Notes: generated by a model not told the origin, from the sequence alone. A DNA stretch of 64,000 bases from an uncultured Candidatus Kuenenia sp. (GCA_964654285.1 CAZZJC010000017.1:16527-80526); one strand, 5' to 3'; counted from the stretch's first letter, positions 3,830-61,682 are shown. Translations and numbers: made by a program.

Positions 3830-3962
3830 GGCCGGGGCGGGTGTAAGCCACAGTTTACAGTTCCGTTACTTGATCGCCTTGATGCCGACCGTATGAGTCC
3901 CACCCCGCGCCGGTCGTCCCGGCATGGACCGCATTCCAACGGAAACGCCTCAAGGAACCGCC

Positions 3963-5735: not shown

Positions 5736-5934
5736 CCGGCACCAGCCACCGATGGCCGATCAGGCCGGGTGAACCGGCCATACCTGGCCGCGTTGAATGG
5801 TACGCTTGCGCCCATCCGCTCGGCACCGGCGACGTTCGTCCTTGCCCGGCTGACGCGGCGAAGGCATAGTCCCAGGCCACGGCGGATGGCTCTTTTTGCT
5901 GCAGACCCGGGTGCCATCTCAGCGAGGAACCACC

Positions 5935-7743: not shown

Positions 7744-7895
7744 GTTCCCGCCGGACGAACGACGCAGCGCGGCGACCGCTGGCCGGCACCTGGCAGGAGC
7801 CCCGCAGGCCGTGATCGCGGCCGAGCCGTCGATGCCCCGATTTTGCGGGAAATTGCGCAGTCACACACCACGAGGACTGCCGCCGTGTGGTCCAT

Positions 7896-7924
7896 TTGAC
7901 CCCCCCCGATACCTGAGGTAAGTT
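7896..7924 (+). promoter_or_regulatory. Candidate sigma-70 promoter for the pilM operon
   Basis: TTGACC (7896-7901), 17-nt spacer, TAAGTT (7919-7924), 50 nt upstream of ATG 7975. Confidence 0.45.
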
Positions 7925-7974
7925 CAGCTTCCACCGTGCTTTGTCTTCCCTGAGCGCGATGGGATCGAGGGCTT

Positions 7975-32393: not shown

Positions 32394-32684
32394 GGCGGCT
32401 TCCAAAGCACATCCCCGCTGCGCGGGGTTCCGGCTGCGCCGGAAGAGTCGGCTTCGCCGTCCCAAGTTCTTGTTTGTCCGGGGGCTGCCCGCCCCCGTAA
32501 CGCGCCTTCGGCGCTCCCCCGTGAGCAGCCTGAAGGCGGCTTCCAAAGCACATCCCCGCTGCGCGGGGTTCCGGCTGCGCCGGAAGAGTCGGCTTCGCCG
32601 TCCCAAGTTCTTGTTTGTCCGGGGGCTGCCCGCCCCCGTAACGCGCCTTCGGCGCTCCCCCGTGAGCAGCCTGAAGGCTGCTCA
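32394..32684. repeat. Exact tandem duplication of a 141-bp multi-hairpin unit plus terminal palindrome
   Basis: 32394-32534 equals 32535-32675; five hairpins per unit; tgagcagcc-tgaa-ggctgctca (32663-32684) overlaps the cobS stop. Confidence 0.92.
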
Positions 32685-36459: not shown

Positions 36460-37287
36460 ATGCCCAACGTTCCCCATCCCGCTCCGCTCCATCTCACCGG
36501 CCTGCTCGCCGGCAAGGCGATCCTGGTCACCGGCGCCGCCAGCGGCCTGGGGCTCGGCATCGCGCGCGGCCTGCATCGCGCCGGCGCCAAGGTCTGCTTC
36601 ACCGATGTCGACGAGACCGGTCTGGCGCAGGTCGCCGCCGGCATCAATGACCCGGCGAATGTGCACACGGCGAAGCTCGATGTCACCAACGAAGCCAGCG
36701 TGCAGGCGGCGTTCGCCGCGTGCGTGGCGCGCTTCGGCGGCCTCGACGGCCTGGTCTGCGCCGCCGGCATCGCGCCGGCCTTCAACCTGGTCGACTTCCC
36801 GCTCGACAAGTGGGAGCTCAGCCTGCGCATCAACCTGACCGGCTATTTCCTCTGCGGCCGCGAAGCCGCGCGCATCTTCCTCAAGCAGAATCGCGGCGGC
36901 GCGATGGTGCTGCTCTCGAGCAAGTCCGGCCTGGAGCCGAGCAAGGCCAACAGCGCCTACAACGCGACCAAGGCCGGCGAGCTGCACCTCGCGCGCGGCT
37001 GGGCGCTCGAACTCGGGCGCGAGGGCGTGCGGGTGAACTGCATCTCGCCCGGCAACGTGTTCGAAGGATCGAAGATCTGGAACCCGACCTACATCGCCGA
37101 GCGCGCCAAGGCCAAGGGCCTGAAACCGGAAGAGGTCATCCCGAGCTACATCGCCCAGACCGCGCTCAACCGCGACATCAAGCCCGACGACATCGCCAAC
37201 ACCGCCGTCTGGCTGCTCTCCGACGCCGCCCGCTGCGTCACCGGCCAGGTGATCATCGTCGATTCGGGGCAGGTGTACGCGCGTTGA
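36460..37287 (+). CDS. SDR oxidoreductase (RhaD C-terminal/SrlD-like)
   Basis: TGAASGLG, YNATK, VRVNCISPG, GSKIWN. Confidence 0.9.
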   Translation: MPNVPHPAPLHLTGLLAGKAILVTGAASGLGLGIARGLHRAGAKVCFTDVDETGLAQVAAGINDPANVHTAKLDVTNEASVQAAFAACVARFGGLDGLVCAAGIAPAFNLVDFPLDKWELSLRINLTGYFLCGREAARIFLKQNRGGAMVLLSSKSGLEPSKANSAYNATKAGELHLARGWALELGREGVRVNCISPGNVFEGSKIWNPTYIAERAKAKGLKPEEVIPSYIAQTALNRDIKPDDIANTAVWLLSDAARCVTGQVIIVDSGQVYAR

Positions 37288-37365
37288 GCGGTCAACCGGC
37301 CACGTCCGCCGGTTGAATCACGGGCCAGACGCGGGATCCCAAGCCGAACCCGAGGACATCCAGGT

Positions 37366-46350: not shown

Positions 46351-46418
46351 GCCGGTGGCGTTCCGTTCGCTGCGCCGGGCCGTTGCCTCCCTCGCCCCCG
46401 CCCGGAACATTGCGCGCC

Positions 46419-48335
46419 ATGCCCGCCCTGCGCATCATCGACGGCCCCGGAAAAGGGATGGTGGTTCCGCTCGATTCCGGCGCGAAGGTGACGCTCGGCC
46501 GCGACGCCGGAAACCACCTGCCCCTCGCTGACGCCAAGGCCAGCCGCGTCCACGCCGAGGTGGTCAACGAGCATGGCCGCTGGCTGGTGCGCGATCTCGG
46601 CTCGTCGAACGGCACCTGGAACGAATCCGGCCGCATCGAGACCATGCCGCTGGGCGACGGCGCGACCTTCCGCATCGGCCAGACCTTCCTCCGTTTCGAA
46701 TCGCGGGCGCCCTCGGCCAAGGACAAGGCGGTCGGCGGCTTCACCGGCCCAGGCCGGCTGACCGCGCTCGACCACGAAAATTCCACCCTGTTCACCAAGA
46801 CGCGCACGAGCTCGGTGCCCTCCGAGGAATTGCTGCGCATCAACGGCTATCTCGCCGTGCTGCACCAGATCGTGCTGCGCGCCGGCAACCTGCGCTCGCG
46901 CGATGCGCTCTTCGAGCTTCTGGACGAGACCGCCGCCGAGGCCCTGGAAGGGGACCGCTGCGCCGTCTTCCTGCCCGCGCCGCCGGCCGAGGCCAACGAT
47001 CTCGGCGGCTGGGTGCTCTGGCCGACCCACGAGCGCCGCCTGCGCGCGCGTTTCGGCGCGGTGCCGTTCGCGCGCACCCTCCTGACCGCCGTGCGCCAGG
47101 GCGGCGAATCGCTGCTGTGCACCCTGAGCGGCGACCTCGATCCGACCGCGTCCATGGCCGAGGCCGGCGTCACCAGCGCGATGGCGGCCCCGGCCCGCGT
47201 CGGCGGCGAGGTCCACGCGCTGCTCTACGTCGACCGCATCGGCGGCGAGGCGCCGTTCACCCGCACCGATCTCGAGTTCCTCGCCGCGGTGGCGAACCAG
47301 ATCGCGGTTCAGCTCGCCAACCGCGAAAAGGTCGCCGGGCTTGAGGCTGAAGTCCAACGCCTCGCCGCCGCGCCGCGCAAGCACGGCGTCGAACTGGTCA
47401 CCGCCGACGCGTCGATGCAGCCGGTGCTGGCCTTCGTCGCCAAGGCCGCGCCGACCCTGGCACCGGTGCTGATCCTCGGCGAAAGCGGCACCGGCAAGGA
47501 GCTCGTCGCGCGCGCCATCCGCGAACAGTCGCTACGCGCCGACAAGCCGCTGCAGGTCGTGAATTGCGCCGCGCTCGCGGAATCGCTGGTCGAGGCGACC
47601 CTGTTCGGCCACGTCAAAGGCGCGTTCACCGGCGCCGACGAGACCCGGCCCGGGGTGTTCGAACTCGCCGACCAGGCGACGTTGTTCCTGGATGAGATCG
47701 GCGAACTGCCGCTTGCGATCCAGGCGAAGCTGCTGCGCGCGCTCGAACAGGGCGAGGTCCAGCGCCTGGGCGACTCCGCCGTGCGCAAGGTCGACGTGCG
47801 CCTGATCGCCGCCACCAACCGCGATCTCGCGGACGAGGTGCGCAAGGGCCGCTTCCGCGAGGATCTCTTCCACCGCCTCGCCGTGCTCTGCGTCACCATC
47901 CCGCCGCTGCGCGAACGCCCGGCCGACATCGACGCCCTCGCCGACCATTTCCTGCGCTTCAACGCCGAACGCCTGGGCCAGCCGCTCAAGCGCCTCGCCC
48001 CCGAGGCCCGCGCCGCCTTGCTGCGCCATCCGTGGCCCGGCAACGTGCGGCAGCTGCGCAACGCGATCGAACGCGCCTGCATCCTCTCGGCCGACAAGGT
48101 CATCCTGCCGAGCGACCTGCCGCAACCGGCCGGCGCCCCCAGCGAGCGCCCGGCGCCGGGTGGCGACTCCGGTGGTTTCGACACCGGCAGCATCACCACC
48201 CTCGCCGAGGTCGAACGCACCCACATCCTGCGCGTGCTCGACCACTGCGGCGGCAACAAGAAGGCGGCGGCGGAGATCCTGGCGATCGATCGCAGCACGT
48301 TGTACGCGAAGCTCAGGCAGTACGGGAAGCTTTGA
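46419..48335 (+). CDS. Sigma-54-dependent activator with FHA and GAF domains and Fis-type HTH
   Basis: FHA (LGRD..SRVHA..DLGSSNGT), GAF, GESGTGKE, GAFTGA, FLDEIGE, RFREDLFHRL, WPGNVRQL, AAEILAIDRSTLYAKL. Confidence 0.93.
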   Translation: MPALRIIDGPGKGMVVPLDSGAKVTLGRDAGNHLPLADAKASRVHAEVVNEHGRWLVRDLGSSNGTWNESGRIETMPLGDGATFRIGQTFLRFESRAPSAKDKAVGGFTGPGRLTALDHENSTLFTKTRTSSVPSEELLRINGYLAVLHQIVLRAGNLRSRDALFELLDETAAEALEGDRCAVFLPAPPAEANDLGGWVLWPTHERRLRARFGAVPFARTLLTAVRQGGESLLCTLSGDLDPTASMAEAGVTSAMAAPARVGGEVHALLYVDRIGGEAPFTRTDLEFLAAVANQIAVQLANREKVAGLEAEVQRLAAAPRKHGVELVTADASMQPVLAFVAKAAPTLAPVLILGESGTGKELVARAIREQSLRADKPLQVVNCAALAESLVEATLFGHVKGAFTGADETRPGVFELADQATLFLDEIGELPLAIQAKLLRALEQGEVQRLGDSAVRKVDVRLIAATNRDLADEVRKGRFREDLFHRLAVLCVTIPPLRERPADIDALADHFLRFNAERLGQPLKRLAPEARAALLRHPWPGNVRQLRNAIERACILSADKVILPSDLPQPAGAPSERPAPGGDSGGFDTGSITTLAEVERTHILRVLDHCGGNKKAAAEILAIDRSTLYAKLRQYGKL

Positions 48336-48446: not shown

Positions 48447-50120
48447 CTAACGAGGGACCTGCGCCCAGGTCAGGATCAAGGGGCGTCCACGCAGCGCGAC
48501 CTGGGCCCAGCGGTTCAGGCTGCGCGCCGGGCCGACCAGCGGGGTCGGCAGGAACGACTGCGCCAGGCCGAGCTTGGCTGCAAGACCGCTGCGTTTCGGC
48601 AGACGTTCGAGCGGTAGCGGGTTGGGCTCCTTGGCCAGAGCGCGGGCGCGCGCGACGGCGCTGATCAGGGTGCCGTAGCCATCGGCGAGCTTGCGTTCGA
48701 CCGCCTGGGTGCCGGTGTAGACCTTGCCGCCGGCGAGATCCATCACCACCGCCGCATCGAGCTTGCGGTTCGCCGCCACGATCGCCTGGAAGCGCCGGTC
48801 GGTGTCCTCGACGACCTGGCGCAGGGCGGCGTCCTTGTCGGCGCTCCACGGCGCGAAGGGGTGCAGGTCGGCGCGCGGCGCGGTGGTGACCGGGAAGCGG
48901 TTCAGGCCGATGAGGCCGGCGGTGCCGGTGAGATCGGGCATCAGCGCGAAGACGCCGATCGACCCGGTGATGGTGGCGCGGTGGACGAGCACCTCGCGCG
49001 CACCGCAGCCGATGTAGTAGCCGCCGCTCGCGGCGACCGCGTCGAACAGGGCGACCACCGGCTTCTTCGCATCCAGGCGTCGCACCGCGTGGTGGATGCG
49101 GTCAGAGGCCGACGCGCTGCCGCCGGGCGAGTTGATGCGCAGCACCACCGCGACGATGTGCTTGTCGTCGGCGAGGCGGTCGAGCAGTTCGGCGGTGTCG
49201 ATGCCGGCGATGCTCTCGCCTGGTTCGCTGCCGTCGCCATCGACGATCTCGCCCTCCAGCTCGACCACCGCGACCGCTTTTTCGGCCTTCGCGCTGCGTT
49301 CGCCTTCCAGCAATTGACTCCAGAACGCCATGACCCCGGCGAAGTTGGACAGGTCCGGCATCTTCTTCTTGCCGTCGAGTTCGCGCACCGGCTGGGGCAG
49401 CGCGGCGCGGAACTCGCCAGGCTCGGCGAGGCGGTCGACGAGGCCGGTCTTCAGCGCGATGGCGGAGGTCTGCGGCGCCTGCGCCCGCGCCGCCGCCAGG
49501 CCGGCGACGGTGACCTTCGTCCCGCGCGTGAGCAGGCCGTCCTGGACCTGGGCGAGCGCGGCGGCGAGCTCCTGGTGCTCCTGCTTCGCCGCCTCGCTCG
49601 GCGCGTTGCGGGTGAACATCTCGGGCGCCGACTTCCAGGCGCCGCTCTGCACCGCGTGGAAGCGCACCCCGAGCTTCGCCAGGCCGTCGGCCACGTACCA
49701 GGTCGACAGGTCGAGCCCCGCGACCGCCAGCATGCCGGCCGGCGGCATCACCACCTCGTCGCAGGCCGCCGCCACCGCCATCGCCGCATCGCGGGATTCA
49801 TCGATCAGGCAGACCACCTTCTTGCCGGGATGCGGCTCGCGGAGGATGGCCGCGAGCTCCTCGCAGGCGGCGGTGCCGGCGTCGAAGTCGCTCGACAGGT
49901 CGAGTACGATCGTCGCCTCGGGCGCCTTGAGCGCCTCGCGCAGGCGCATCGTCGCCGTGTGCAGCGACATCCCGCCATCGTCGAAGAGCATCGCCCGGGG
50001 TTTGAGCGGCAGGTCGCCATCGAGCCGCACGATGAGCGAGCCCTTGGGATCGCCCTCCACCTCGGCAGCGGGGGCGGTGGAAAGCAGAACAGCGAAAGCC
50101 AGGAGGAGGGTCGGGCGCAT
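48447..50120 (-). CDS. sppA: Signal peptide peptidase SppA (protease IV, two-domain S49)
   Basis: SGAWKSAPE, LRINSPGGS, AASGGYY, TGSIGV, GKVYTGTQA. Confidence 0.9.
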   Translation of the reverse strand: MRPTLLLAFAVLLSTAPAAEVEGDPKGSLIVRLDGDLPLKPRAMLFDDGGMSLHTATMRLREALKAPEATIVLDLSSDFDAGTAACEELAAILREPHPGKKVVCLIDESRDAAMAVAAACDEVVMPPAGMLAVAGLDLSTWYVADGLAKLGVRFHAVQSGAWKSAPEMFTRNAPSEAAKQEHQELAAALAQVQDGLLTRGTKVTVAGLAAARAQAPQTSAIALKTGLVDRLAEPGEFRAALPQPVRELDGKKKMPDLSNFAGVMAFWSQLLEGERSAKAEKAVAVVELEGEIVDGDGSEPGESIAGIDTAELLDRLADDKHIVAVVLRINSPGGSASASDRIHHAVRRLDAKKPVVALFDAVAASGGYYIGCGAREVLVHRATITGSIGVFALMPDLTGTAGLIGLNRFPVTTAPRADLHPFAPWSADKDAALRQVVEDTDRRFQAIVAANRKLDAAVVMDLAGGKVYTGTQAVERKLADGYGTLISAVARARALAKEPNPLPLERLPKRSGLAAKLGLAQSFLPTPLVGPARSLNRWAQVALRGRPLILTWAQVPR

Positions 50121-50449
50121 GCGCCGCAGGCTGGCTGACGACGTCGGGTGGCAAGAGCGGGACGCGCGTCGGCGTTTACCGAGGATTCGCCAAGAGGTTG
50201 ACCAACCCAGGAACGCCTCCGGTGCCTTAGCAACTGGTCTAGACAGCACAAACGGAGGCCGGTGCGGACCGGGGTCCGTAAATCGAGCTTCTGACCGTCA
50301 ACCTGTCGGTGAATCCTGAATGATCGCGCCTGTTGACCATGATCCCCGCCGAGGTCGGCGTGGCAGCCATTACGACCCTGGGTCGAGAGGCTCTCGTGCG
50401 CGACTGGCAGGACAAAACCCACAGCGCCACCAAAGGTCAAAGCGTGTCT

Positions 50450-50640
50450 GGATTGGGATAGTTATAAATCTATAATGCGTAGATGCTTGAGACGGTTTAT
50501 ATTGCGTTTCAAATATTCATTGACTATATGAAACGACCGTGTTACAAGCGCTATTTACATCCACGGTCCTTCTGGACAAGCTTCAGGGCCTGGAGTGCAG
50601 GATTACCGATTCATCAATTTTAGGGTTCTAAGCCTGGAGC
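50450..50640. promoter_or_regulatory. AT-rich regulatory region upstream of the phc-like cluster
   Basis: Most AT-rich stretch seen in the window; TATAAT at 50471-50476; TTGACT (50520-50525)-17 nt-TACAAG (50543-50548) with an extended -10 TG. Confidence 0.5.
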
Positions 50641-50647
50641 GACGCTT

Positions 50648-51835
50648 ATGGAACTGACACGACGCGAAGCGGTTTCGAACGGCATCCCACGCAGCCTGGT
50701 TCTGTTCGTCGACGACCAGGCCGTGGCGCGGAAGTACTTCAGCATGATGTTCAGCCAGGAATACGAGGTGCTGACAGCCAGTAATGCCGAGGAGGCCTGG
50801 AGGAAGATACAAAGAATCGGGGAACGTATCGCGGTGATCATCACGGATCAGCGCATGGAACCGCATACCGGAGTCGAACTTCTGCAGGCGGTACGCAGAT
50901 CCCACCCGAACATCGTGCGTCTCTTGACCACCAGCTATGGCGATCTCGACGCCGCCATCGAGGCCGTGCGCAGCGGCGAGATATACGCCTACGTCTACAA
51001 GCCCTGGAACATCGAGGAATTCAGCCTGGACATCCGGCGTGCGGTGGAATTGCACCACCTGCAGAAGGAGCGGGACAGGCTGGCCCGGGATCGGGGCCTG
51101 CAGACCTCGTTTCGCGGCTATGCAGAGCGCATCCGGATGTATGGAATCATCGCCGCAGCCTGCGCCGGTCTGCTTGATCGGCCGGTGGCTGCCGTCCTGG
51201 CCTATATCTCCGACAGCCTCCGCCATTTCCGTCTCGTCGCCCAGGACAACGACGCGGGACCCGCCTCGGATGGAGACGACCTGCGTCAGCTCATGACCGG
51301 TGCGAGCGAGATCGGTCGATGGCTGGCGGCGAATCGCCGGGCAGGGGATATGATCGTGAGCGACGCCACGATCGCGGTGATGGATCTCGTGGAGGATCTG
51401 TCGATCCCATTCGAATGCCTGCCCACTTCCCCCAAAGCGCTGGTGGATCGGCGGCTGTTGACGGCAGGGATCCGCGAACTGCTCTTCTTCATCCAGCGTC
51501 TTGCCGCCCGGAACCAACGCTCATCCGACTTCCGCCTGCAGGCCGCAGGTGCGGCCGAGGGAGGGTTCTGCCTCCGGGTGCTTGCCCGTCATGAATCCGT
51601 GGCCGCTTCGCGCCCCAATGCCGAATGCAATCTGCGCCAGATCGAGATCCATGGGATCTGCGCATATTTCGCCATTCTTCATCTCGGAGGAAGCCTGACC
51701 ATCGAAGGATGGTCCGAGGAGGAGACGACGGTCCGCATCCAGCTGCCGCTCCAACCCCCGGCGACGACCAGACGAAGCGATGCGATCGCCGAATTCCACG
51801 AATTCCTGGCCCGGCCCCTGCCGTCGTCCCGCTGA
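50648..51835 (+). CDS. Receiver domain plus degenerate histidine-kinase-like domain (PhcQ/PhcR-like paralog 1)
   Basis: LFVDDQ..KYF, TDQRM, RLLTTSY, YKPW; H-box position reads GIIAAACAGLLDRPV with no His. Confidence 0.85.
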   Translation: MELTRREAVSNGIPRSLVLFVDDQAVARKYFSMMFSQEYEVLTASNAEEAWRKIQRIGERIAVIITDQRMEPHTGVELLQAVRRSHPNIVRLLTTSYGDLDAAIEAVRSGEIYAYVYKPWNIEEFSLDIRRAVELHHLQKERDRLARDRGLQTSFRGYAERIRMYGIIAAACAGLLDRPVAAVLAYISDSLRHFRLVAQDNDAGPASDGDDLRQLMTGASEIGRWLAANRRAGDMIVSDATIAVMDLVEDLSIPFECLPTSPKALVDRRLLTAGIRELLFFIQRLAARNQRSSDFRLQAAGAAEGGFCLRVLARHESVAASRPNAECNLRQIEIHGICAYFAILHLGGSLTIEGWSEEETTVRIQLPLQPPATTRRSDAIAEFHEFLARPLPSSR

Positions 51836-51841
51836 TCCCGT

Positions 51842-52786
51842 ATGCCGAGGCCCCAACCCATGCGATCGCAGTGGATTCCTCCAGACGCAGCGCAATTGCG
51901 GACGATTCCCGGATTCGACGTGCAATGCCTCCTGGGACATGGGGGAATGGGGGCGGTGTACCTGGCCTGGCAGATCGACCGGAATCGTCCGGTGGCTCTG
52001 AAGATCGCCCGGCCGATCGAGGGATCGAGCCGGGCCTACATGGCTCTGGTGGTCCATGAGGCGCAGGTCATGGGACAGCTCGAGCATCCGAACATCGTCA
52101 AGGTCTTCGATTCCGGCAGCAATGGCGACTGGGTCTGGATCGCGATGGAGCTGGTCCAGGGATCCTCACTGCGTGAGATGATCCGCAATCGCCGGACATC
52201 CCAGTCGGTTGCCCTGTCGTTGGCGACGCAGGTGTGCGATGCCCTGCGCCACGCGCATGCGCGGGGCGTCGTCCACCATGATCTCAAACCCGAGAACGTT
52301 CTGGTCGATGCGCAGAACCGGGCGAAGATCTTCGATTTCGGGATCTCCAAGGTGCAGGGATTCTCCTACACCATCGCCCGGCCAGGCCGGATATCCGGAA
52401 CGCTGCGATACATGGCCCCCGAGCAGCGGCTGCATCCACGCGACGTGGACCACCGTATCGACATCTACGCCCTGGGGGTTGTCATGTTCGAGTTGCTGAC
52501 GGGGCGGATCCCAACGGATCCATTCACACCTCCATCACGTTTCGGCGCCTCCAGCGCGAAGTTGGACAGCATCGTCCTGAGATGCCTGGCCAGGAATCCC
52601 AACGAACGCTGGCCGTCGGCGGCGCGTTTGCTCGACGAATTGTGCGATCTGCCCAGCGTGAGCGAGCTGGAGCCATCGCCAATGCCTACGGGTTCGACGA
52701 CGACCTTCGACATCATCATCGAGCCGCCCGTGCCGTGCCTGGAAAACCAGACGACCTCCACCACTCCCAGCCTGTGCCTATGCTGA
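51842..52786 (+). CDS. Hanks-type Ser/Thr protein kinase, cytoplasmic, non-RD
   Basis: LGHGGMGAVY, VALKI, HHDLKPEN, DFG, GTLRYMAPEQ, DIYALG; no TM helix; S/T-rich tail. Confidence 0.93.
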   Translation: MPRPQPMRSQWIPPDAAQLRTIPGFDVQCLLGHGGMGAVYLAWQIDRNRPVALKIARPIEGSSRAYMALVVHEAQVMGQLEHPNIVKVFDSGSNGDWVWIAMELVQGSSLREMIRNRRTSQSVALSLATQVCDALRHAHARGVVHHDLKPENVLVDAQNRAKIFDFGISKVQGFSYTIARPGRISGTLRYMAPEQRLHPRDVDHRIDIYALGVVMFELLTGRIPTDPFTPPSRFGASSAKLDSIVLRCLARNPNERWPSAARLLDELCDLPSVSELEPSPMPTGSTTTFDIIIEPPVPCLENQTTSTTPSLCLC

Positions 52787-52982
52787 AGCACGAGGACGGG
52801 AACCAGCATCACGACCGACGGATCCTGGTCACCAGCAGGCCTCTGCCCGCGTTCGTCATGCACGGGCGGATCGGCCTGCCGCGCACGGCAGGCCCGCATC
52901 GCCGCAACGGGCGGGCCGCATGTGGATGGTTCCGGACCGGCCAGGATCCCACCACGCTCATCGTCAGACGGGATGAACTGCC

Positions 52983-54386
52983 ATGAACAACGTGAACCTG
53001 ACCGAGAGCCTCCTGGTCTTCCAGAACAGCCAGGGCGTCGAGAGTCGCGGCACGATCATGCGCCTTTCCCGCGACATGGTGGTGTTCGAGGTCTACAACC
53101 CGTATTCCATCGTCCAGTTGAGTGAAGTCCTGCGCCAGCTCCGCATCCGTCGGGGTGATCGGGTGATCTATGAGGGAAAAGCCGTCGTCTCCAACCTTGT
53201 CAACACGGGGATGATGCTGATCGTGTCCGCCACTCTGGTTGAACCCTGGCTCACGATGGCGGATCTGGGTCCTGGTGAACCACTGCGCAAGGAGGTTGCG
53301 GATTTCATCTCTGACTGGGAACGGGACTCGCAGGGACTTGTCCCAGATTACCGCTTGAGCGTAAGCAGCATCTCCAGCTTTCTGGAGGAGCTTAATCGTT
53401 GGCTGGCCCAGATCGAGACGGCGGCGGGGATCAATGAGCCCGGTAGCAGACAGGAGTTGGCTCGCGAGTTCGCTGCGGATGTTGAACGCCAGGTTCTGCC
53501 GAAGATTGCGGAATTATTCAACGATTTCGAAAACCGCGCCGCTGTCCTCGATTCCGCGCAGATCCCCACCCACAAAGCCTTCGCCCGACGCCAGCTGCAC
53601 CCGCTCATCATGTGCGCGCCGTTCAATCATCGCACCTTCACCAAGCCGCTGGGATATGCTGGTGACTATGAGATGGTGAACATGATGTTCCGTGATCGAT
53701 GGGAAGGGGCCAGCACCTATGCCAAGATAATCAATGCGTTTCCGATATTGAATGATTGCGCGCAGGCCCATCGAAATCGCATTGACAAACTCATCGGGTA
53801 CCTGACCACCGAGGCCCAAAGGGTCGTCTCCACCGGACGCCCTTTGCGGATTCTTAATGTCGCGTGCGGCCCGGCCATCGAGGTCCAGAAATTTGTGCGT
53901 AGTTCGCCATTTGCCGATCAGTGCCAGTTCCACCTCCTGGATTTCAATGCGGAAACCTTGGCCTATACCCGACGTTGTCTGCAGGACGCGGTGCGTGCTA
54001 GCGGACATCTCCCGGATTTGGTATTCATACACAAGTCGGTGAATGACCTGCTCAAGGAGGCGCGGGGACGGAAGGAGACGACTAGTGACACGTATGATTT
54101 GGTCTACTGCGCAGGTCTCTTCGACTACCTTTCGGATAAGATCTGCGCTCGTCTGGTCGAGCTGTTCGCGCGTTGGACCGCGCCTGGCGGATTGTTGGTG
54201 GTGACTAACGTCCATAAGCGTAATCCTGTGCGGTATTTCATGGAACACCTGCTGGAGTGGTACCTGATCTACCGTGATCACGCCCAATTGCTCACGCTTC
54301 ATTCTGGGAGTGGGAATGCGGAGATAACCGAGGAGTCGACCGGCATAAACATCTTTCTCGAAGTGCGGCTTCCCGCGCAAACATGA
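52983..54386 (+). CDS. phcB: PhcB-like SAM-dependent methyltransferase (3-hydroxy fatty acid methyl ester signal synthase family)
   Basis: N-terminal FQNSQG..RGTI..EVYNPYSIVQLSEVL..GKAVV..VNTG; RTFTKPLGYAGDYEMVN; AHRNRI; ILNVACGPA; YDLVYCAGLFDYLSD. Recognised from memory of the PhcB family; gene order fits. Confidence 0.78.
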   Translation: MNNVNLTESLLVFQNSQGVESRGTIMRLSRDMVVFEVYNPYSIVQLSEVLRQLRIRRGDRVIYEGKAVVSNLVNTGMMLIVSATLVEPWLTMADLGPGEPLRKEVADFISDWERDSQGLVPDYRLSVSSISSFLEELNRWLAQIETAAGINEPGSRQELAREFAADVERQVLPKIAELFNDFENRAAVLDSAQIPTHKAFARRQLHPLIMCAPFNHRTFTKPLGYAGDYEMVNMMFRDRWEGASTYAKIINAFPILNDCAQAHRNRIDKLIGYLTTEAQRVVSTGRPLRILNVACGPAIEVQKFVRSSPFADQCQFHLLDFNAETLAYTRRCLQDAVRASGHLPDLVFIHKSVNDLLKEARGRKETTSDTYDLVYCAGLFDYLSDKICARLVELFARWTAPGGLLVVTNVHKRNPVRYFMEHLLEWYLIYRDHAQLLTLHSGSGNAEITEESTGINIFLEVRLPAQT

Positions 54387-57079
54387 TGATTCCCGGCGAA
54401 AACGACACCCTCTTCTGGTCGTCCTATGCCAAGGCCGACAGGGACTTGTGCGTGCGGCATGCCCGGATCGGCTGCCTGCTCGCATTCATTTTTGTCCCCC
54501 TTGGCAGCAGTCTGGAGTATTTCATCTACCCAGACTTGCTTTGGACCATTCTGGTCGTCCGGTTGCTGTGCGCTCTCGCAATCCTTCCCATCTGGTTCGC
54601 CCTGGGACACCCCTGGGGTCGGAGGCATGTTGACGTTCTGGGTTCACTGTGGCCGTTGGTCCCGGCGGCGAGCATGGTTTGGATGATAGCCATTTCCGAG
54701 GGCTGGGCTTCGCCCTATTATGCTGGTCTGAATCTGGTAATAGCGGTGACCGGCATTCTGATGCCTTATACCCGGCGTCAGGCAATGATGATCTGCATGC
54801 TGGTGATCGCCGGCTACGTGGTGGCCTGCCTGTGGCACCAGCGGGTTTCCGGGATGGAGGCGAACCTGCGTGATATCTATGGGAACCTGTTCTTCATGGT
54901 GGTCACTTCTGTCATCACGGTGACCGCCTCCCATTTCTTCCATCGCAAGCGCATCCTCGATTTCCACCTCCGCCATCAACTGGATGCGAAGAACCAACAG
55001 TTGGATGTGCAGAACCGTCGCCTGGCCGATTCCTACGAAAAATTGAGCGAACTCGATCGCCTGCGCACCCAGTTCTTCGCAAACGTCAGCCATGAGCTGC
55101 GCACGCCGCTGACGCTCATCATCTCCCCGGTCGAGGATCTCCTGCACAGCGACCTCCGGTTGGGCGACAAGGAGGCAGAGTTGCTGGGTATCGCGCGCCA
55201 GAACGGCCTGCGCCTGCTGAAGCTCATCAATGATCTGCTGGAGGTCGCGCGCCTCGACGCGGGTCGGATGGAATTGCGGCGGGAATGCATGGATCTCGCG
55301 ACCTTCATCCCCGGGGTGGTGGAATCGATCCGCTACCTCGCCGAGGCGAAGGATCTGCGGCTGGAGGCGAACGGGCGATCCGATGGACTGGTCATCCAGG
55401 CCGATCCATCGCGACTTGAGAAGATCCTGCTCAACCTGCTCACCAATGCGATCAAGTTCACTCCCAAGGGTGGGATCATCATCGTCGAATGGAGTCGGGA
55501 TGGTACCGATGCGGTCTTCTCGGTCACCGATACCGGCATCGGGATACCCGCGGATGAGCACAAGCACCTTTTCAGCCGTTTCCACCAGGTGGATGGATCC
55601 TCGACCCGGAGATACCAGGGCATGGGCATCGGCCTGGCCTTGGTCAAGGAACTGGTGGAAGAGCACGGCGGGAGGATCACGGCGGACAGCAATATTGAAC
55701 GCGGCACCTGCATGCGTGTGCGGTTGCCGATCGACGAGGCGACGCTCCCGGCCGCCGGGGTTCCGCCAGCGCAGGCGACCGGGCCGGCCCGGGAATCCAC
55801 CTCGGCATCGGATCCCGCCGATGATGCCTTGAGCGACATCTACCGTTCCGCCGAGCGGCGCGGCGGTGTTCAGCTCGACGATACCGGGCTCCACGAACCC
55901 CGGATCAGCGGTTCTGGTGCCCGCCTGATCCTGGTGGTGGATGACGAACCGGACATGCGTCGATACCTGGTCGCCCGTCTGGTCGAGAAGTATCGTGTCG
56001 TGCAGGCGGTGGACGGCCTCCAGGCGGTGGAAGTGGCCCTGGCGCAGCGTCCTGATCTGGTCCTGCTCGATCTCATGCTGCCGGGCATCGACGGCATCGC
56101 GGTCTGCCGCCGTCTGCGGACGGAACCGTCTCTCGCCCGAACCCGCATCATCCTGCTCACCGCACGGGGTGACGAGGAGACCAAGATCACCGCCCTGGAC
56201 GCCGGAGCCGATGACTTCCTGACCAAGCCGTTCAGCACCATCGAGGTCCGCTCACGCATCGCCACCCAGCTGCGTGCGGCCGAGCTCCAGCGCCTGGCCG
56301 AGGAACGTGCCGATGAGCTGGCGGCGGCCCTCGCCCGGCTGCGCGAAGCCGAGTCGATGCTGGTGCAGTCCGAGAAGATGCACGCCCTTGGCAGCCTGGC
56401 CGCCGGACTTCTGCACGAGATCAACAACCCGCTCAACTATTCCCAGCTCGCCGTCACCCTGGCCCGCGAGAAGGTGCGGCCGGGCGACGATTCCCTGGCG
56501 GAGATGCTCAAGGACGCCCACGACGGCATGACCCGCATCGGCAGCGTGATCTGCAGCCTGCGCACCTTCGCCTATCCCGATACCATCGATTTCTCCCAGT
56601 CCTTCCCCATCGTCGAGGCGATCGATCTGGCCCTCCGATTCACCTCGTTGCAGTGCAACCAGGTCGTGGTGCGCCGCCGGATCGCACCCGGACTTTCCGT
56701 CTGCGGTTCGGTCAACCAGGTTTCGATGGTCCTGGTCAATCTCGTGGCCAATGCGAGCCGGGCGATCCAGGCGGTCGAGGACGGACGCCAGGGCTGCATC
56801 GCCGTCGTGGCCAGGGAGGAAGGCGACATCGTCCGCATCGAGGTGATCGACAACGGAGTCGGCATGGACGCGGAACGCACGCGCCGCGCCTTCGATCCCT
56901 TCTATACGACCAGCGCCCCCGGCAAGGGCATGGGCCTAGGCCTGACGATCTGCCATACCGTCGTCCGCAATCATCGCGGGCGCATCGGCATCGACAGCCG
57001 CCCGGGAACCGGAACCACCGTCTGGATCGAGTTGCCAACCCCCGCCGCGCTAGCGGCCTCGGAGCCAAGCCATGGATAA
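54383..57079 (+). CDS. PhcS-like membrane hybrid sensor kinase (multi-TM, HisKA-HATPase, REC, second HisKA-HATPase)
   Basis: Several TM helices; SHELRTPL, NAIKF, GMGIGL; VVDDE..DLMLP..KP; LHEINNPL, DNGVG, GMGLGL; ATGA overlap with phcB. Confidence 0.9.
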   Translation: MMIPGENDTLFWSSYAKADRDLCVRHARIGCLLAFIFVPLGSSLEYFIYPDLLWTILVVRLLCALAILPIWFALGHPWGRRHVDVLGSLWPLVPAASMVWMIAISEGWASPYYAGLNLVIAVTGILMPYTRRQAMMICMLVIAGYVVACLWHQRVSGMEANLRDIYGNLFFMVVTSVITVTASHFFHRKRILDFHLRHQLDAKNQQLDVQNRRLADSYEKLSELDRLRTQFFANVSHELRTPLTLIISPVEDLLHSDLRLGDKEAELLGIARQNGLRLLKLINDLLEVARLDAGRMELRRECMDLATFIPGVVESIRYLAEAKDLRLEANGRSDGLVIQADPSRLEKILLNLLTNAIKFTPKGGIIIVEWSRDGTDAVFSVTDTGIGIPADEHKHLFSRFHQVDGSSTRRYQGMGIGLALVKELVEEHGGRITADSNIERGTCMRVRLPIDEATLPAAGVPPAQATGPARESTSASDPADDALSDIYRSAERRGGVQLDDTGLHEPRISGSGARLILVVDDEPDMRRYLVARLVEKYRVVQAVDGLQAVEVALAQRPDLVLLDLMLPGIDGIAVCRRLRTEPSLARTRIILLTARGDEETKITALDAGADDFLTKPFSTIEVRSRIATQLRAAELQRLAEERADELAAALARLREAESMLVQSEKMHALGSLAAGLLHEINNPLNYSQLAVTLAREKVRPGDDSLAEMLKDAHDGMTRIGSVICSLRTFAYPDTIDFSQSFPIVEAIDLALRFTSLQCNQVVVRRRIAPGLSVCGSVNQVSMVLVNLVANASRAIQAVEDGRQGCIAVVAREEGDIVRIEVIDNGVGMDAERTRRAFDPFYTTSAPGKGMGLGLTICHTVVRNHRGRIGIDSRPGTGTTVWIELPTPAALAASEPSHG

Positions 57080-58175
57080 ACACCGGGATCTTCTGCTCTT
57101 CGTCGACGATGAAGAACAGGCGCTCAAGTACTTCACCCTCGCCTTCGCGAAGGACCATGAGGTGCTCACCGCCAGCAATGCCGATCAGGCCTGGGCGCTG
57201 ATCGAACAGCATGCCGGACGTCTGGCCCTGGTCATCAGCGACCAGCGCATGCCGGGACGCAGCGGGGTGGAGCTTCTCACCGCGACCAAGGAACGCTGTC
57301 CCAGGGCGGTACGACTGCTGACCACCGCGTATTCCGATCTCAGCAGCGCCATCGACGCGGTGAACCACGGCGCGATCTTCTCCTACGTCACCAAGCCGTG
57401 GAAGATCGAGGAATTGCGGATGACCATCCGCCAGGCGCTGCAGTTCCATCACCTGCAATGCGAGCGTGACGCCCTCCTGGCAGACAAGCTCTCCGTGTTC
57501 CAGCAGCTCCTGCTCGCCGACCGCACCCGGGTGCTGGGCATGGTCACCGCCGGCATGGGCGGTCAGGTGCGGCGGCCGCTCGCCGCCGCCGCCGCCTGGT
57601 TGCGTGACCGCCAGGGGGCATTCGCCGGGCTCTTCCCGGTGGTTCCCGAGGTTCGTGACCTCTGGACGGCGGTCCTCGACCAGTGCCGCGCCACCGCCGG
57701 ACTGGCGGGCGGGCTGAGCACGTGGCTGGCGGCGAACCGTGGCTCCGAAGTGCCCATGGATCTCGGCGCACTGCTGAGCAATGCCGCCGCCGGGCAGGGT
57801 GGTGCGAGACTGGCCGACCATCCCACCTTCACCCTGTTCGGCGATCACCGGCTGTTGACGGCGGGTTTTTCCGAGCTGTTCCGCCTGGTCCACCATGGCC
57901 TGCGCAGTCCTGGGAGTTCGGCCACGGTGACGGTGCGCGGCGATCACGCCAATGCCGCCATCAACCTCCGCCTGTCAGGCGGCCAGGAGCCCGATGGCGA
58001 GCCCGAACGCGCCGGCCTGGCCGCCTATCTCGCTATCCATCATGCCCACGGCTCGATAACCGTTCCCTCGTGGTCCGACCAGGACGGTCGCCGCATCGAG
58101 ATTGTGCTGGGCGGTTCTGACGATGACGGGATGGAGTCGTTCCTGGCCCAGATGGCGAACTTCGAACACGGGTGA
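57072..58175 (+). CDS. Receiver domain plus degenerate histidine-kinase-like domain (PhcQ/PhcR-like paralog 2)
   Basis: LFVDDE..KYF, SDQRMPG, RLLTTAY, TKPW, ERDALLADKL; H-box position GMVTAGMGGQVRRPL lacks His; overlaps the kinase stop. Confidence 0.88.
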   Translation: MDKHRDLLLFVDDEEQALKYFTLAFAKDHEVLTASNADQAWALIEQHAGRLALVISDQRMPGRSGVELLTATKERCPRAVRLLTTAYSDLSSAIDAVNHGAIFSYVTKPWKIEELRMTIRQALQFHHLQCERDALLADKLSVFQQLLLADRTRVLGMVTAGMGGQVRRPLAAAAAWLRDRQGAFAGLFPVVPEVRDLWTAVLDQCRATAGLAGGLSTWLAANRGSEVPMDLGALLSNAAAGQGGARLADHPTFTLFGDHRLLTAGFSELFRLVHHGLRSPGSSATVTVRGDHANAAINLRLSGGQEPDGEPERAGLAAYLAIHHAHGSITVPSWSDQDGRRIEIVLGGSDDDGMESFLAQMANFEHG

Positions 58176-58464: not shown

Positions 58465-60009
58465 TCAGTTCTGCAGCACCTTGGCCAGATCAAGCGGCGC
58501 CAGTCCATGGCCCTGGATCCAGCGGTTCCAGAACGCGTCGACCACCGGCTTCCCGTGCTTCTGCTCAAGATGCCGGCGCCAGGCGGCGTTGTCGACCAGA
58601 CGCCAGCGGTTGCCGGCGGCCCAGGCGGTCAGGCAGTTGAGCCAGGCCTCGTCGCCGACCTGCTTGCGCAGCGCCTGGTAGGCGAGCGCGCCACGGCCGT
58701 AGACCTGCGATCCGTGCGGGTCGCCGGGTTCCGTCCACAGCGGCCGGTCGATGGCAGGATAGAGGTCGCCGTTGGCATCGGCCTTGCGGTCGCGCATCTG
58801 CGCCTGCATCCAGATCATGCGCCAGGCCCAGCTTCCGATCTGGGGCGAATCGCCTTCGAGGATCCAGCCGGTGGTCCAGTTGGTCAGGCTTTCATCGAGC
58901 CAGGCGGTGGGGAACGGATCGTTGCCGACCAGGTCGTACCACCACTGGTGCGCGGCCTCGTGCACCACGGTCATGTCGAACATGAACACCGGCAGGGCCG
59001 AGGCCGGCGGATCGTCGCCCATCAGATCGACCTGGCTGGCATGCGAACCCCCGATCAGCACCAGGCCGCTCGATTCGATGCCGCCGACCGACTCGCCGAG
59101 GTCGCCGGCCAGCACCACGTCGAGTTCCGGCCGGGGCGGCGGCGCGAAGCGGCGGCACCGGGTGAGGGCCAGGGTGGTACGCGTGAGCGCGCGCTTGGCC
59201 GCGTGCGGCAGGCCGCGATGCCAGACCCGGACGCGGACGCCATCGATGTTCTGATCGAGAGATTCCCACTTCCCCAGCACGACGGTGAGATTGCGAGCGA
59301 ATGGGCAGGTCATCTCCAGGATCCGGCGCGGACCGGGCAGGTCGTCGACCACCATGCGGCCGCCGGCCGGGATGGCGGTGCCGTCGTCGACCTCCAGCCG
59401 GGCCTGGACGTGGTGCAGCCACGAACGCGCCGGATCGCAGAGTTCCGGCAGGGGATCGACCTGCCAGGCGCCGTCGCGCCGCAGCGCCAGTTCCGGGAAC
59501 CAGCCATGCAGCACCGCGACGCCGCTCGCCTGGTCGAGGGTGCCCAGGCCGTGGTAGCCGCCGGTGGTCGACAGCGCGTGGCGGAAGGTCAGATCGACCG
59601 CGACCTGCGCCCCCGGCGCGAGCGGCTGCGCCAGCGGCACGCGCCAGCCCATGCCGTCGCGCACCGCTGCGCCGACGACCGGTTGACCGTCCACCGCCGT
59701 CGCGCTGATGGTCATGGTCGCACCGTGCCAGATGGGATCGTTGGGATACTGCTGGAAGACGAGATCCTCAAGCGGTGCGCCCGTCGTGTTCTTCCAGGCC
59801 ATCCGCACCGTTCCCGTCACCACGCCGTCGCGGAAGGCGGCGTCGACCCGGTAGACCGCCGCGTCGTCGCGCGCGCGCAATTCGCTGGGATCGGCCCCGG
59901 CGGCCAGGTAGGCCTCCACCGCTGCGGGAGTCAGCAGGGACTGGCGGGCGCAACCGCCGAGCACCAGGACGACGCACGCGAGGATCAGGGGCAGGCGGTA
60001 GGGGCGCAT
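58465..60009 (-). CDS. M1-family (gluzincin) aminopeptidase, probable lipoprotein
   Basis: Lipobox-like LVLGGC; GGIE, HEAAHQWW, WLDESLT, VYGRGA. Confidence 0.88.
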   Translation of the reverse strand: MRPYRLPLILACVVLVLGGCARQSLLTPAAVEAYLAAGADPSELRARDDAAVYRVDAAFRDGVVTGTVRMAWKNTTGAPLEDLVFQQYPNDPIWHGATMTISATAVDGQPVVGAAVRDGMGWRVPLAQPLAPGAQVAVDLTFRHALSTTGGYHGLGTLDQASGVAVLHGWFPELALRRDGAWQVDPLPELCDPARSWLHHVQARLEVDDGTAIPAGGRMVVDDLPGPRRILEMTCPFARNLTVVLGKWESLDQNIDGVRVRVWHRGLPHAAKRALTRTTLALTRCRRFAPPPRPELDVVLAGDLGESVGGIESSGLVLIGGSHASQVDLMGDDPPASALPVFMFDMTVVHEAAHQWWYDLVGNDPFPTAWLDESLTNWTTGWILEGDSPQIGSWAWRMIWMQAQMRDRKADANGDLYPAIDRPLWTEPGDPHGSQVYGRGALAYQALRKQVGDEAWLNCLTAWAAGNRWRLVDNAAWRRHLEQKHGKPVVDAFWNRWIQGHGLAPLDLAKVLQN

Positions 60010-60064
60010 GTCCGGAGCCTGCCTGCCGCCGCGTCGCGCACCAGGGCGGGGAGCGATGGTCCCG

Positions 60065-60165
60065 CACGGTGCCTCAAAAGTCGGATGGTGGCGTGCTGCG
60101 CACGCGCTCTTTCCATGCGGACGAGACGTCCGCGGTCCGAGGAGGCCGACTTTTGAGGCACTGTG
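60065..60165. mobile_element. MITE, 101 bp, 20-bp terminal inverted repeats, 10-bp target-site duplication
   Basis: cacggtgcctcaaaagtcgg (60065-60084) and ccgacttttgaggcactgtg (60146-60165) pair at 19/20; gatggtcccg flanks both ends (60055-60064, 60166-60175). Confidence 0.85.
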
Positions 60166-60185
60166 GATGGTCCCGCCCGGACGGC

Positions 60186-61682
60186 TCAACCGCTGGATGG
60201 ACCCATGGGCGGATCCGCGGTCGCCTCATCTGCCGCGCCGGCCTCGGCCAGCCCCAGCGCATCCTGCACCTTCGCGCTGCGGTTCAGGCGCGCACCGAGG
60301 TCGACCAGCTTCTGGGCCCGGCCGACGAGGTTGCCCTTGCCGGTGGCCAGCTTCGCGCGGGCCTGTTCGTAACCCGCTTGCGCCTTCGTGAGGCCGGCGC
60401 CGAGATCATCGAGGTCGCCCAGGAAACCGGCGAGCTTTTCCAGCATCCTGCCCGCTTCCTCGGCGATCTTCTGGGCGTTGGCGTTCTGCCGTTCGCTGCG
60501 CCAGACGTGGGCGACCACGCGCAGGGTGGCGAGCAGGGTGGTCGGGCTGGCGAGGACGATCCCCTGGTTGAAGGCCTCGTTGTAGATCGCCGGATCCTGG
60601 GCGATGACCGCGTGGAAAGCCGCCTCGGACGGGATGAACATCAGCACGAAGTCGAGGGCGCGGCCGCCGACCACGTCGTGGTAGTGCTTGCCGGCGAGCG
60701 CCTTGATGTGGGCGCGCACGGCATTGCGGTGCGCCGCAAGGGCGTTCGCGCGCGCCTCGGGGTCGTCGGCGCGGGTGCTCTCGACGAAGGCGGTGATCGC
60801 GACCTTGCTGTCGATCACCACCGCCTTGTCGCCGGGCAGGTGCAGCACCACGTCGGGGCGCAGGTGGCGCAGGCCGTCCTCGGCCCGGTGCGATTCCTGC
60901 ACCGCGTATTCGCGGCCCTCGGCCAGGCCGGACAGGGCGAGCAGGTTCTCCAGGATCATCTCGCCCCAGTCGCCCTGGGTCTTGGCTTCGCCGGTCAGGG
61001 CGCGGGTCAGCGATTCCGCCTCCTTGCCGAGTTTCAGGTGCGCCGCGTCGAGGCGTTTCAGCAGATCGAGCAGGCTGGCGCGGTCGCGGTTCTCGCTGTC
61101 GTAGGTCCTGGCGACCTGGGCCTCGAAGGCGGTGATGCGTTCGCGCAGCGGCGTCAGCAGGGCGTCGAGTCCGCTGCGCTGCTCGACCAGCAGGGCCTTG
61201 CCTTTTTCCTCCAGCAACCGGTTGGCGAGGTTTTCGAACTCGGCGCGCAAAGCGGTGCGGGCGCGTTCGGCTTCGGCCAGGCGCTCCTCGGCGGCGCGGC
61301 GTTCGTGGTCGAGCGCGGCGGCCAACCGGGTGCGTTCGGAATCTGCGACGGTGAACCGGTCGCGCAGGGCGGCGAGGTCGTTTTCGCGCAGGGCCAGGGC
61401 GGCGGCGAGTTCGCCGAGGCGCGTTTCTGCGGCGGTGCGTTCGGCCAGCGCGGTGGCGCGCCCGGTCTGCGCGGCGGTGGCGGATTCGGCTGCGATCTGC
61501 GTGCGCTGGCGTTCCGCCGCAAGCTGTTCATCGCGGACGCGGATCTGCTCGGCCAGCACCGTGCGTTCGCGCTCCTGCGCCAGCGCCGCCGTGCGGTTGG
61601 CCAGGCGCCAGGCCAGGAAGACCGCGCCGCCGCCGATTCCCAGGCCGAGGACGAGACCGAGGCCGAGCGAGAGGGGTTCCAT
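60186..61682 (-). CDS. rmuC: DNA recombination protein RmuC
   Basis: N-terminal TM helix and coiled coil; KTQGDWGEMILE, RPDVVLHLP..VIDSK, DFVLMFIPSEAA, SPTTLLATL. Confidence 0.93.
   Translation of the reverse strand: MEPLSLGLGLVLGLGIGGGAVFLAWRLANRTAALAQERERTVLAEQIRVRDEQLAAERQRTQIAAESATAAQTGRATALAERTAAETRLGELAAALALRENDLAALRDRFTVADSERTRLAAALDHERRAAEERLAEAERARTALRAEFENLANRLLEEKGKALLVEQRSGLDALLTPLRERITAFEAQVARTYDSENRDRASLLDLLKRLDAAHLKLGKEAESLTRALTGEAKTQGDWGEMILENLLALSGLAEGREYAVQESHRAEDGLRHLRPDVVLHLPGDKAVVIDSKVAITAFVESTRADDPEARANALAAHRNAVRAHIKALAGKHYHDVVGGRALDFVLMFIPSEAAFHAVIAQDPAIYNEAFNQGIVLASPTTLLATLRVVAHVWRSERQNANAQKIAEEAGRMLEKLAGFLGDLDDLGAGLTKAQAGYEQARAKLATGKGNLVGRAQKLVDLGARLNRSAKVQDALGLAEAGAADEATADPPMGPSSG

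Follow-up and report, generated by a model that had tools for sequence, protein, structure and literature searches.

A locus of five genes, at 50648-58175 on the plus strand of a 64,000-nucleotide stretch of DNA from an uncultured Candidatus Kuenenia sp. (GCA_964654285.1 CAZZJC010000017.1:16527-80526, the whole of which is called the window below), genuinely belongs, by sequence comparison, to the broad Phc-type family, of which it represents a long-kinase, planctomycete form. Open reading frame (ORF) calling on the window gives the order RR1-STK-MT-HHK-RR2, i.e., a receiver (REC) protein with a degenerate histidine-kinase (HK) core, a Hanks-type Ser/Thr kinase, a methyltransferase, a membrane hybrid histidine kinase, and a second REC/pseudo-HK protein. 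MT, HHK, and RR2 constitute a cassette related to the phcBSRQ operons, while RR1 and STK are a rare add-on that is kept with the cassette in two genera. The five genes together probably serve small-molecule signalling of the Phc type, with RR1 coupling the relay to STK. A first-pass annotation of the window had described a Phc-like methyl-ester signalling locus with an embedded Ser/Thr kinase. The kinship with Phc-type operons (MT clade, sensor domain, H-box, and PhcQ-like receivers) and the placement of the host in Planctomycetota are both borne out; other parts of that description need revision.

Kinship of the cassette with phcBSRQ-type operons

Layout homologues of phcBSRQ, in which an MT gene precedes genes for a 442-445-aa membrane kinase and two receiver proteins, were found in Nitrotoga sp., a Nitrosomonadales metagenome-assembled genome, and on a Paraburkholderia graminis plasmid. 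MT is 42-44% identical, over residues 8-466, to the MTs (463-468 aa) of these three betaproteobacterial operons. Its length of 467 aa also equals that of Ralstonia PhcB (464-468 aa, as given in the accessible part of PMC8578825), the alignment itself being with the betaproteobacterial layout homologues. In a quick, outgroup-rooted tree of 50 MTs, the betaproteobacterial enzymes form one clade (SH-aLRT, i.e., approximate likelihood-ratio support, of 100) inside a 43-row clade (97) that holds all planctomycete MTs. Among the sequences available, the window's enzyme thus shares one supported clade with the phcBSRQ-layout MTs, as its first-pass assignment to PhcB demands. A plasmid collection contained no Ralstonia PhcB; the only full-length match there comes from Paraburkholderia graminis. 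Relatives of MT are numerous: of 8000 candidates that were scored, 5656 reach an E value of 0.001 or better. Identity is 51-68% in the top 120, many of which the Joint Genome Institute (JGI) lists as 'extracellular factor 3-hydroxypalmitic acid methyl ester biosynthesis protein'. The gene is present in a single copy in the genome. An AlphaFold2 model (pLDDT, the model's confidence score, 87.5) consists of a barrel (9-85), helices (99-282), and a Rossmann domain (288-462); Foldseek with this model returns only small-molecule methyltransferases, a generic fold.

The sensor kinase is related to PhcS in two of its parts. The first 200 residues of HHK contain 5-6 hydrophobic segments, followed by HK1 (His237), a receiver, and HK2 (His678), the latter with a PhcS-type H-box. 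With E values of 2.5e-20 and 3.6e-26, the sensor domain (residues 12-205) is 27-30% identical over 194 residues to the proteins in the PhcS position of Nitrotoga and Paraburkholderia; Pfam at E up to 10 gave nothing useful for it. The kinase cores of these PhcS-position proteins share 35-37% identity with HK2, whose H-box (LAAGLLHEINNPLNY, His678) corresponds to their H-box at His230/233. In Ralstonia PhcS, autophosphorylation takes place at His230, according to the accessible part of PMC11960443. The PhcS-like sensor proposed at first therefore stands in its sensor domain and H-box and fails in its architecture: HHK is not a simple sensor kinase of ~442 aa but a two-kinase hybrid of 898 aa, and the long form is present in 20/20 planctomycete-type loci. 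The best NCBIfam match of HHK is hybrid_HK_LvrA (2.5e-89, below the family cut-off). Two of the surveyed loci contain split genes, namely a hybrid kinase divided into ORFs of 641 and 249 aa (L024, 8371-11021) and a PhcS-position gene divided into ORFs of 160 and 292 aa (L008, 8389-9716); both are frameshifts or assembly errors.

The length of HHK raises the question of a fusion of PhcS and PhcR, with the three-gene cassette collinear with phcB-S-R-Q. The PhcS-position protein aligns with HHK 12-449 (26%, 9e-34) and the PhcR-position protein with HHK 516-886 (26% over 390 aa, 1e-17), in the order of their genes. However, the PhcS kinase core is nearer to HK2 (37%, 142 bits) than to HK1, and the PhcR receiver is nearer to RR1 and RR2 (33-38%, 97-100 bits) than to the receiver of HHK. 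Since any REC-HK protein would align with 516-886, collinearity of such generic domains is weak evidence, and a fusion origin appears highly improbable.

RR1 and RR2 are 38% identical over 365 aa. The pseudo-kinase half of neither protein gave a useful Pfam match, even at E up to 10. A profile of 33 members of the family nevertheless matches the dimerization and catalytic (DHp-CA) cores of solved kinases, such as ZraS (2.8e-14, profile positions 147-368), FixL fusions, and KinB; in the alignment, the H-box histidine and the DxGxG box kept in relatives are absent from RR1 and RR2. In the AlphaFold2 model of RR1 (pLDDT 88.3), the receiver is joined by a long helical hairpin and an alpha/beta domain; the best match of the model in the PDB is the Leptospira REC-HK protein LvrB (E 2.9e-13, ~397 columns, 16% identity). 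Taken together, the profile match, the missing boxes, and the model make 'REC/pseudo-HK', the label of the first-pass annotation, a fair description despite the lack of Pfam support.

Within the Phc family, both regulators resemble PhcQ. RR2 is 42% identical to the PhcQ-position protein of Nitrotoga and 33% identical to the PhcR-position protein; RR1 (38% identical to the PhcQ-position protein) is likewise closer to the former than to the latter. Unlike RR1 and RR2, the PhcR-position protein of Nitrotoga retains the H-box histidine and the DxGxG box. In a regulator tree rooted on the PhcR-position proteins, RR1 and RR2 group with the PhcQ-position proteins, and relatives of the two bear the name 'PhcQ' from JGI. 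Both regulators are PhcQ-like and not PhcR-like. The correspondence to PhcR/PhcQ seen at first thus holds for PhcQ, while the tree and the missing H-box leave no PhcR-like regulator in the locus. In Ralstonia, PhcR has 368-374 aa and PhcQ 336-337 aa (PMC8578825, accessible part).

The Phc-like core is neither rare nor peculiar to this genome. A full-length MT is encoded by 12/401 sampled genomes of Planctomycetota, the window's own included (6/23 in the window's family and 0/2 in the other genomes of the genus), and relatives already carry JGI names for the PhcB and PhcQ functions of KEGG. PhcQ-like regulators are present in 12/12 MT-bearing genomes, whereas 4/389 genomes without MT contain weak, receiver-only matches. 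Where the downstream sequence is long enough, MT is followed by an HHK-type gene (20/20 planctomycete-type loci); of the loci that reach past HHK, 13/13 have a PhcQ-like regulator next. This synteny and co-distribution make the three-gene core a widespread, conserved module of Planctomycetota. In other planctomycete families, MTs 26-32% identical to the window's lie beside full-length HHK homologues (L034, L035, and L036, from G138, G286, and G321). Among the distant MT loci of this identity range, 3/6 looked at adjoin HHK homologues that are 29-33% identical over nearly the whole length; the pairing of MT and kinase is therefore older than the Phc-like branch.

Compared with phcBSRQ, the locus shares the gene order (MT at the start, a membrane sensor kinase second, and after it a receiver protein that lacks a DNA-binding domain), an MT alignable end to end, the PhcS-type polytopic sensor domain and H-box, and PhcQ-like receivers. 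Neither operon includes a transcription factor: no DNA-binding family was found among the block proteins with Pfam and NCBIfam, in agreement with the first reading of the DNA, and the accessible part of PMC8578825 likewise gives no DNA-binding output for Ralstonia phcBSRQ. The differences concern the sensor (an 898-aa TM-HK-REC-HK hybrid, TM denoting the membrane part, instead of ~442 aa), the absence of a PhcR-type protein with an intact kinase core (both window regulators have dead kinase-like domains), the extra upstream pair of a duplicated regulator and a Hanks kinase, and the planctomycete host.

The function of the cassette could also lie within the cell. HHK might sense the state of the membrane lipids and MT might be the regulated output enzyme for the cell's own use, so that the whole would serve membrane or envelope lipid homeostasis. 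The N-terminus of MT would suit a regulated enzyme: residues 1-95 (52983-53267) include the six-strand beta-barrel modelled at 9-85, and related Atlas clusters (Myxococcota and Nitrospirota) carry PilZ (PF07238) in 10-84% of their members. PilZ, a receptor of cyclic di-GMP, is recognized by the motifs RxxxR and (D/N)xSxxG. In the N-terminus of MT, Pfam at E up to 10 found no PilZ and no RxxxR is visible ahead of the barrel, so the region may be a degenerate PilZ with another ligand. Furthermore, the Phc product is known from Ralstonia alone, and the distant MT-HHK pairs, being older and broader than the Phc branch, need not mean quorum sensing. The block also contains no export or uptake gene, but lipophilic methyl esters need no dedicated exporter. 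Lipid homeostasis is nonetheless quite unlikely to be the role of the cassette, as the window's sensor domain is specifically related to PhcS-position sensors and the MT gene comes first, as in phcBSRQ. In the only members that have been studied, production of the secreted signal depends on PhcB and its perception on PhcS (PMC8578825 and PMC11960443, in their accessible parts).

The RR1-STK pair

The 11 RR1 rows of the regulator tree form a clade (SH-aLRT 99) whose sister clade (98) comprises the RR2 proteins of the window and of genome G423 and one protein of G399. This placement argues that RR1 arose by duplication of the cassette's own regulator and is a lineage-specific duplicate of RR2. 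Nine full-length RR1 orthologues with 41-48% identity were identified, and Asp22, Asp23, Asp67 (the phospho-acceptor), Thr95, and Lys118 are invariant within the group. It is a small group: with RR1 as the query against 1.84 billion representatives, only three proteins besides the window's own scored above 215 bits. A regulator of the same type also occurs apart from any cassette. In G142 (L031, contig C182, 11353-14371), an orphan PhcQ-like regulator of 398 aa, far from the MT locus of that genome, faces the gene for an unrelated Ser/Thr kinase of 595 aa in convergent orientation, and 5 kb away there is another orphan gene of PhcQ-like type.

STK has all the Hanks motifs, i.e., the Gly-rich loop (GHGGMG), the lysine of the VAxK motif (Lys54), the HxD loop (HHDLKP at 145), DFG at 165, and APE at 192. 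There is no membrane or sensor domain. The kinase is of the non-RD type, with HHD or HQD across the orthologue group versus HRD in the other kinases aligned. This group is distinct (289-332 aa, 52-59% identity, 298-370 bits), all other kinases scoring at most 261 bits. Contigs of 5099, 8489, 4245, and 3593 bp occur in both orthologue lists (4/9 RR1 contigs and 4/10 STK contigs), and these matching sizes suggest that RR1 and STK orthologues share contigs.

The 48 genomes of the class to which the window belongs were all searched for RR1. One of them, G423, which belongs to another genus of the same family, encodes an orthologue (2.8e-86), and on its contig the five genes recur with order and strand unchanged. 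Identities to the window are 43% for RR1, 51% for STK, 46% for MT, 51% for HHK, and, over the full length, 58% for RR2. The junctions are similar as well, with gaps of 17 bp between RR1 and STK and of 121 bp between STK and MT, and an overlap of 8 bp between HHK and RR2. The leader upstream of RR1 is again low in GC (0.41 in its lowest 100 bp), so the AT-rich dip precedes RR1 in both genomes; the GC content of the STK-MT spacer is ordinary. The flanks of the G423 block (a sulfatase, a Cache-domain kinase, and an MT-like gene) are unrelated to those of the window. The kinase is thus kept with the locus in a second genus. The description of it as embedded has to be modified, since it belongs to an upstream two-gene add-on with RR1 and is separated from MT by 196 bp.

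Two genes upstream of the block, at 46341-48335 (+), the window encodes an enhancer-binding protein of the FHA-GAF-sigma54 AAA+-HTH_8 type, one of 13 sigma54-activator matches in the genome. FHA domains bind phospho-threonine, so the activator is a conceivable target of STK. The adjacency itself finds no support in G423, where the orthologue (67% identity) is located off the contig that carries the block.

Organization, composition, and surroundings of the block

ORF calls and Pfam confirm the five same-strand genes with the order, spacing, and overlaps noted in the first-pass annotation (Table 1). RR1 and STK are 6 bp apart (24 bp if the database start of a 308-aa form, P0125, is the true start), MT and HHK overlap by 4 bp, and HHK and RR2 by 8 bp. 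Minus-strand genes border the block on both sides (an S49 peptidase at 48447-50249 and an M1 peptidase at 58465-60189) and thereby make the five genes an isolated same-strand unit.

Table 1 Features of the block, with positions counted from the first nucleotide of the window
Feature	Position	Strand	Details
AT-rich leader, candidate promoter or operator region	50450-50560	+	upstream of RR1, GC 0.34
RR1: REC + degenerate histidine-kinase core, PhcQ-like paralogue of RR2	50648-51835	+	395 aa, Response_reg 2.9e-14
STK: minimal soluble non-RD Hanks-type Ser/Thr kinase	51842-52786	+	314 aa, Pkinase 7.9e-47
GC-rich spacer between RR1-STK pair and MT-HHK-RR2	52787-52982	+	196 bp, GC 0.69
MT: PhcB-type methyltransferase dependent on S-adenosylmethionine	52983-54386	+	467 aa, Methyltransf_25 5.9e-6 in the C-terminal third
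HHK: polytopic membrane hybrid kinase, TM-HK-REC-HK	54383-57079	+	898 aa, HisKA + HATPase_c x2, Response_reg 3.1e-28
RR2: REC/pseudo-HK, PhcQ-like cassette partner	57072-58175	+	367 aa, Response_reg 5.3e-15

The AT-rich leader reported earlier is real, its lowest 100-bp window (at 50458) having a GC content of 0.32. The weaker GC bias of the block relative to its flanks is likewise confirmed: GC is 0.621 in the block versus 0.692 in the rest of the window, and GC at third codon positions (GC3) is 0.70-0.82 in its genes versus 0.86-0.91 in the four flanking genes. Such a dip is not unique, as GC also falls to 0.58-0.65 at 4000-12500 and 37000-39000. Regulatory signals were sought with little result. 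A promoter scan with the sigma-70 consensus gave 0 sites, a consensus scan for terminator-like sites gave 3 versus 4.2 expected and none in the 52787-52982 spacer, the fold of this spacer (z-score -1.4) is not significant, and the aligned leaders of the window and G423 have no convincing motif in common.

Horizontal acquisition of the block is plausible: its GC and GC3 are lower, its distribution is patchy, its flanks in G423 are unrelated, and the MT tree departs from the family groupings. G303, the nearest congener, has flank proteins 88-90% identical to the window's, and its homology to the window ends at 50135 and 58465. Beyond these points the two contigs concerned (C117 and C65; L041 and L042, which carry the S49 and M1 peptidase genes) continue for 161-307 bp, with no overlap between their tails. 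The block is therefore either absent from G303 or unassembled, and the site may be a strain-variable island or an assembly gap. The congener G012 is not syntenic.

Other parts of the window have features of their own. At 3924-12805 (+), five same-strand genes of lower GC include one of PilM_2/FtsA-like type (7975-9801) and four for proteins of 395-617 aa without a Pfam family; they may represent an unusual pilus-type assembly cluster. An intergenic unit of 141 nt is perfectly duplicated in tandem at 32394-32675. No tRNA or Rfam family was found there, and the congener G012 has matches of 64-142 nt to it with 83-86% identity. DNA nearly identical to the window also occurs in sequencing runs of two other studies, as short contigs with few or no differences in scattered places; these carry no information on the conservation or expression of the block.

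Proposed working of the block

In the five-gene signalling locus proposed here, MT would produce the signal, a hydrophobic methyl ester for which a 3-hydroxy fatty acid is the probable precursor, and the PhcS-like six-helix membrane domain of HHK would sense it. Phosphate could then pass from HK1 His237 via the internal receiver and HK2 His678 to the PhcQ-like receivers. As these have no DNA-binding domains, they would have to act by binding other proteins, by analogy with PhcQ and PhcA in Ralstonia. The accessible part of PMC13320629 reports that PhcQ binds and stabilizes PhcA, which gives such regulators a precedent for protein-protein output. No LysR gene is present in the block or the four flanking genes; PhcA itself was not sought.

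In one sublineage, the PhcQ-like regulator was duplicated. Its copy, RR1, lies 6 bp before a bare non-RD Hanks kinase, and the pair seems to have been retained in front of the cassette, with a single AT-rich leader preceding all five genes. The leader dip in both genomes and the ordinary GC content of the spacer weakly suggest one promoter region for all five genes. RR1 would be a second acceptor of phosphate from HHK, and we infer that its dead kinase-like domain controls STK or is controlled by it. RR1 might gate the kinase or be its substrate; in both cases, the His-Asp relay would acquire a Ser/Thr-phosphorylation branch. One specific form of this coupling is a receiver-gated kinase, in which RR1 phosphorylated by HHK switches STK on or off through the dead kinase-like domain and the methyl-ester signal is read out as Ser/Thr phosphorylation. 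It is offered tentatively and is, on present evidence, rather doubtful.

Several observations weigh against a methyl-ester circuit that includes the kinase. The link to Phc is drawn from betaproteobacterial operons of phcBSRQ layout and from JGI names, not from Ralstonia or Cupriavidus proteins. MT matches no NCBIfam family model, its sequence matches in the PDB are weak and confined to class I methyltransferases, with no close solved structure, and an identity of 42-44% does not fix its substrate. Neither RR1 nor STK was found within 3.5 kb in 23/24 other MT loci, and the kinase is therefore dispensable for the cassette. (This survey required at least 690 bp of upstream sequence and was reduced from 27 rows by two same-contig duplicates and one locus with 218 bp upstream, the only rows removed.) L002, whose MT is the closest relative (66% identity), is among the loci without the pair, with 695 bp of sequence upstream. 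MTs of pair-less loci resemble the window's MT more (65-66%) than does that of G423 (46%), so the parts of the block may not share one history. Besides, the spacer of 196 bp (121 bp in G423) could hold a second promoter, which would make RR1-STK a separate transcription unit, and the promoter and terminator scans were without useful result. Finally, the genome contains 73 kinase-like candidates, so kinase genes beside other genes are common.

Some of these points would also fit the view that RR1-STK is an independent two-gene module, brought beside the cassette by a single insertion inherited in this sublineage and exchanging no signal with it. The spacer before MT stands out in this respect, as all other junctions are of 17 bp or less or overlap; the pair-less loci, the abundance of kinases, and the G142 orphan regulator beside an unrelated kinase, far from MT, are in keeping with it too. 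In addition, no contig size of an RR1 or STK orthologue recurs among the best 120 MT matches. This last argument is weak, because the G423 MT is only 46% identical and the MTs of the orthologue contigs could rank below those 120. An independent module is, however, hard to reconcile with the sister relationship of RR1 and RR2, which makes RR1 the closest paralogue of the cassette's own regulator, and with the near restriction of PhcQ-like regulators to MT-bearing genomes. The five-gene order is moreover kept across two genera despite differing flanks, and in either genome the one AT-rich leader precedes RR1. Independence of the pair is accordingly judged unlikely, and the coupled five-gene locus remains the preferred interpretation.

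Two known systems offer partial parallels to this coupled locus. Leptospira LvrA/LvrB also combines a hybrid kinase with a REC-HK 'hybrid response regulator' in a branched relay that ends on receivers without DNA-binding domains, and LvrB (8vc9), the best structural match of the RR1 model, consists of REC followed by DHp-CA. Identity is only 15-16%, and RR1 and RR2 are without the phospho-acceptor histidine and the ATP-binding boxes; to our knowledge, neither a methyltransferase nor a membrane sensor like that of PhcS belongs to the Lvr system. The second parallel concerns the kinase. Stk1, StkP, and PrkC act on CovR, WalR, and GraR, and STK resembles them as a Ser/Thr kinase that has all catalytic motifs and whose position would allow it to act on a receiver-domain protein or together with it. 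Kinases of that type are membrane proteins with PASTA or other sensor domains and are usually encoded away from their response-regulator targets, whereas STK is a bare non-RD catalytic domain of 314 aa encoded 6 bp after a receiver/pseudo-kinase gene. The action of Hanks kinases on two-component proteins is in general a known theme (PMC6213207, accessible part).

The literature searches returned no paper combining a Phc gene name with 'planctomycet' and no paper title linking PhcB to a Ser/Thr kinase. They agree with the earlier statement that no Phc system with a Hanks kinase or in Planctomycetota has been described, the search for PhcB and kinases being one by title. The core has already been annotated by pipelines (JGI), and the RR1-STK add-on is new as far as the searches reach.

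Phc signalling has reportedly been studied only in Ralstonia and close relatives, where it is said to govern virulence. The locus adds evidence that the set of synthase, sensor, and regulator is widespread in uncultured Planctomycetota, and its kinase-bearing form presents a His-Asp relay and a Hanks kinase kept as one block in two genera. RR1 and STK provide a concrete pair for asking how PhcQ-type proteins signal without binding DNA, while the long two-kinase sensor may tell how PhcS arose. If the receiver-gated scheme were true, STK would represent a new output route for PhcQ-type regulators without DNA-binding domains, and the locus would be the first quorum-sensing-type circuit described in Planctomycetota.

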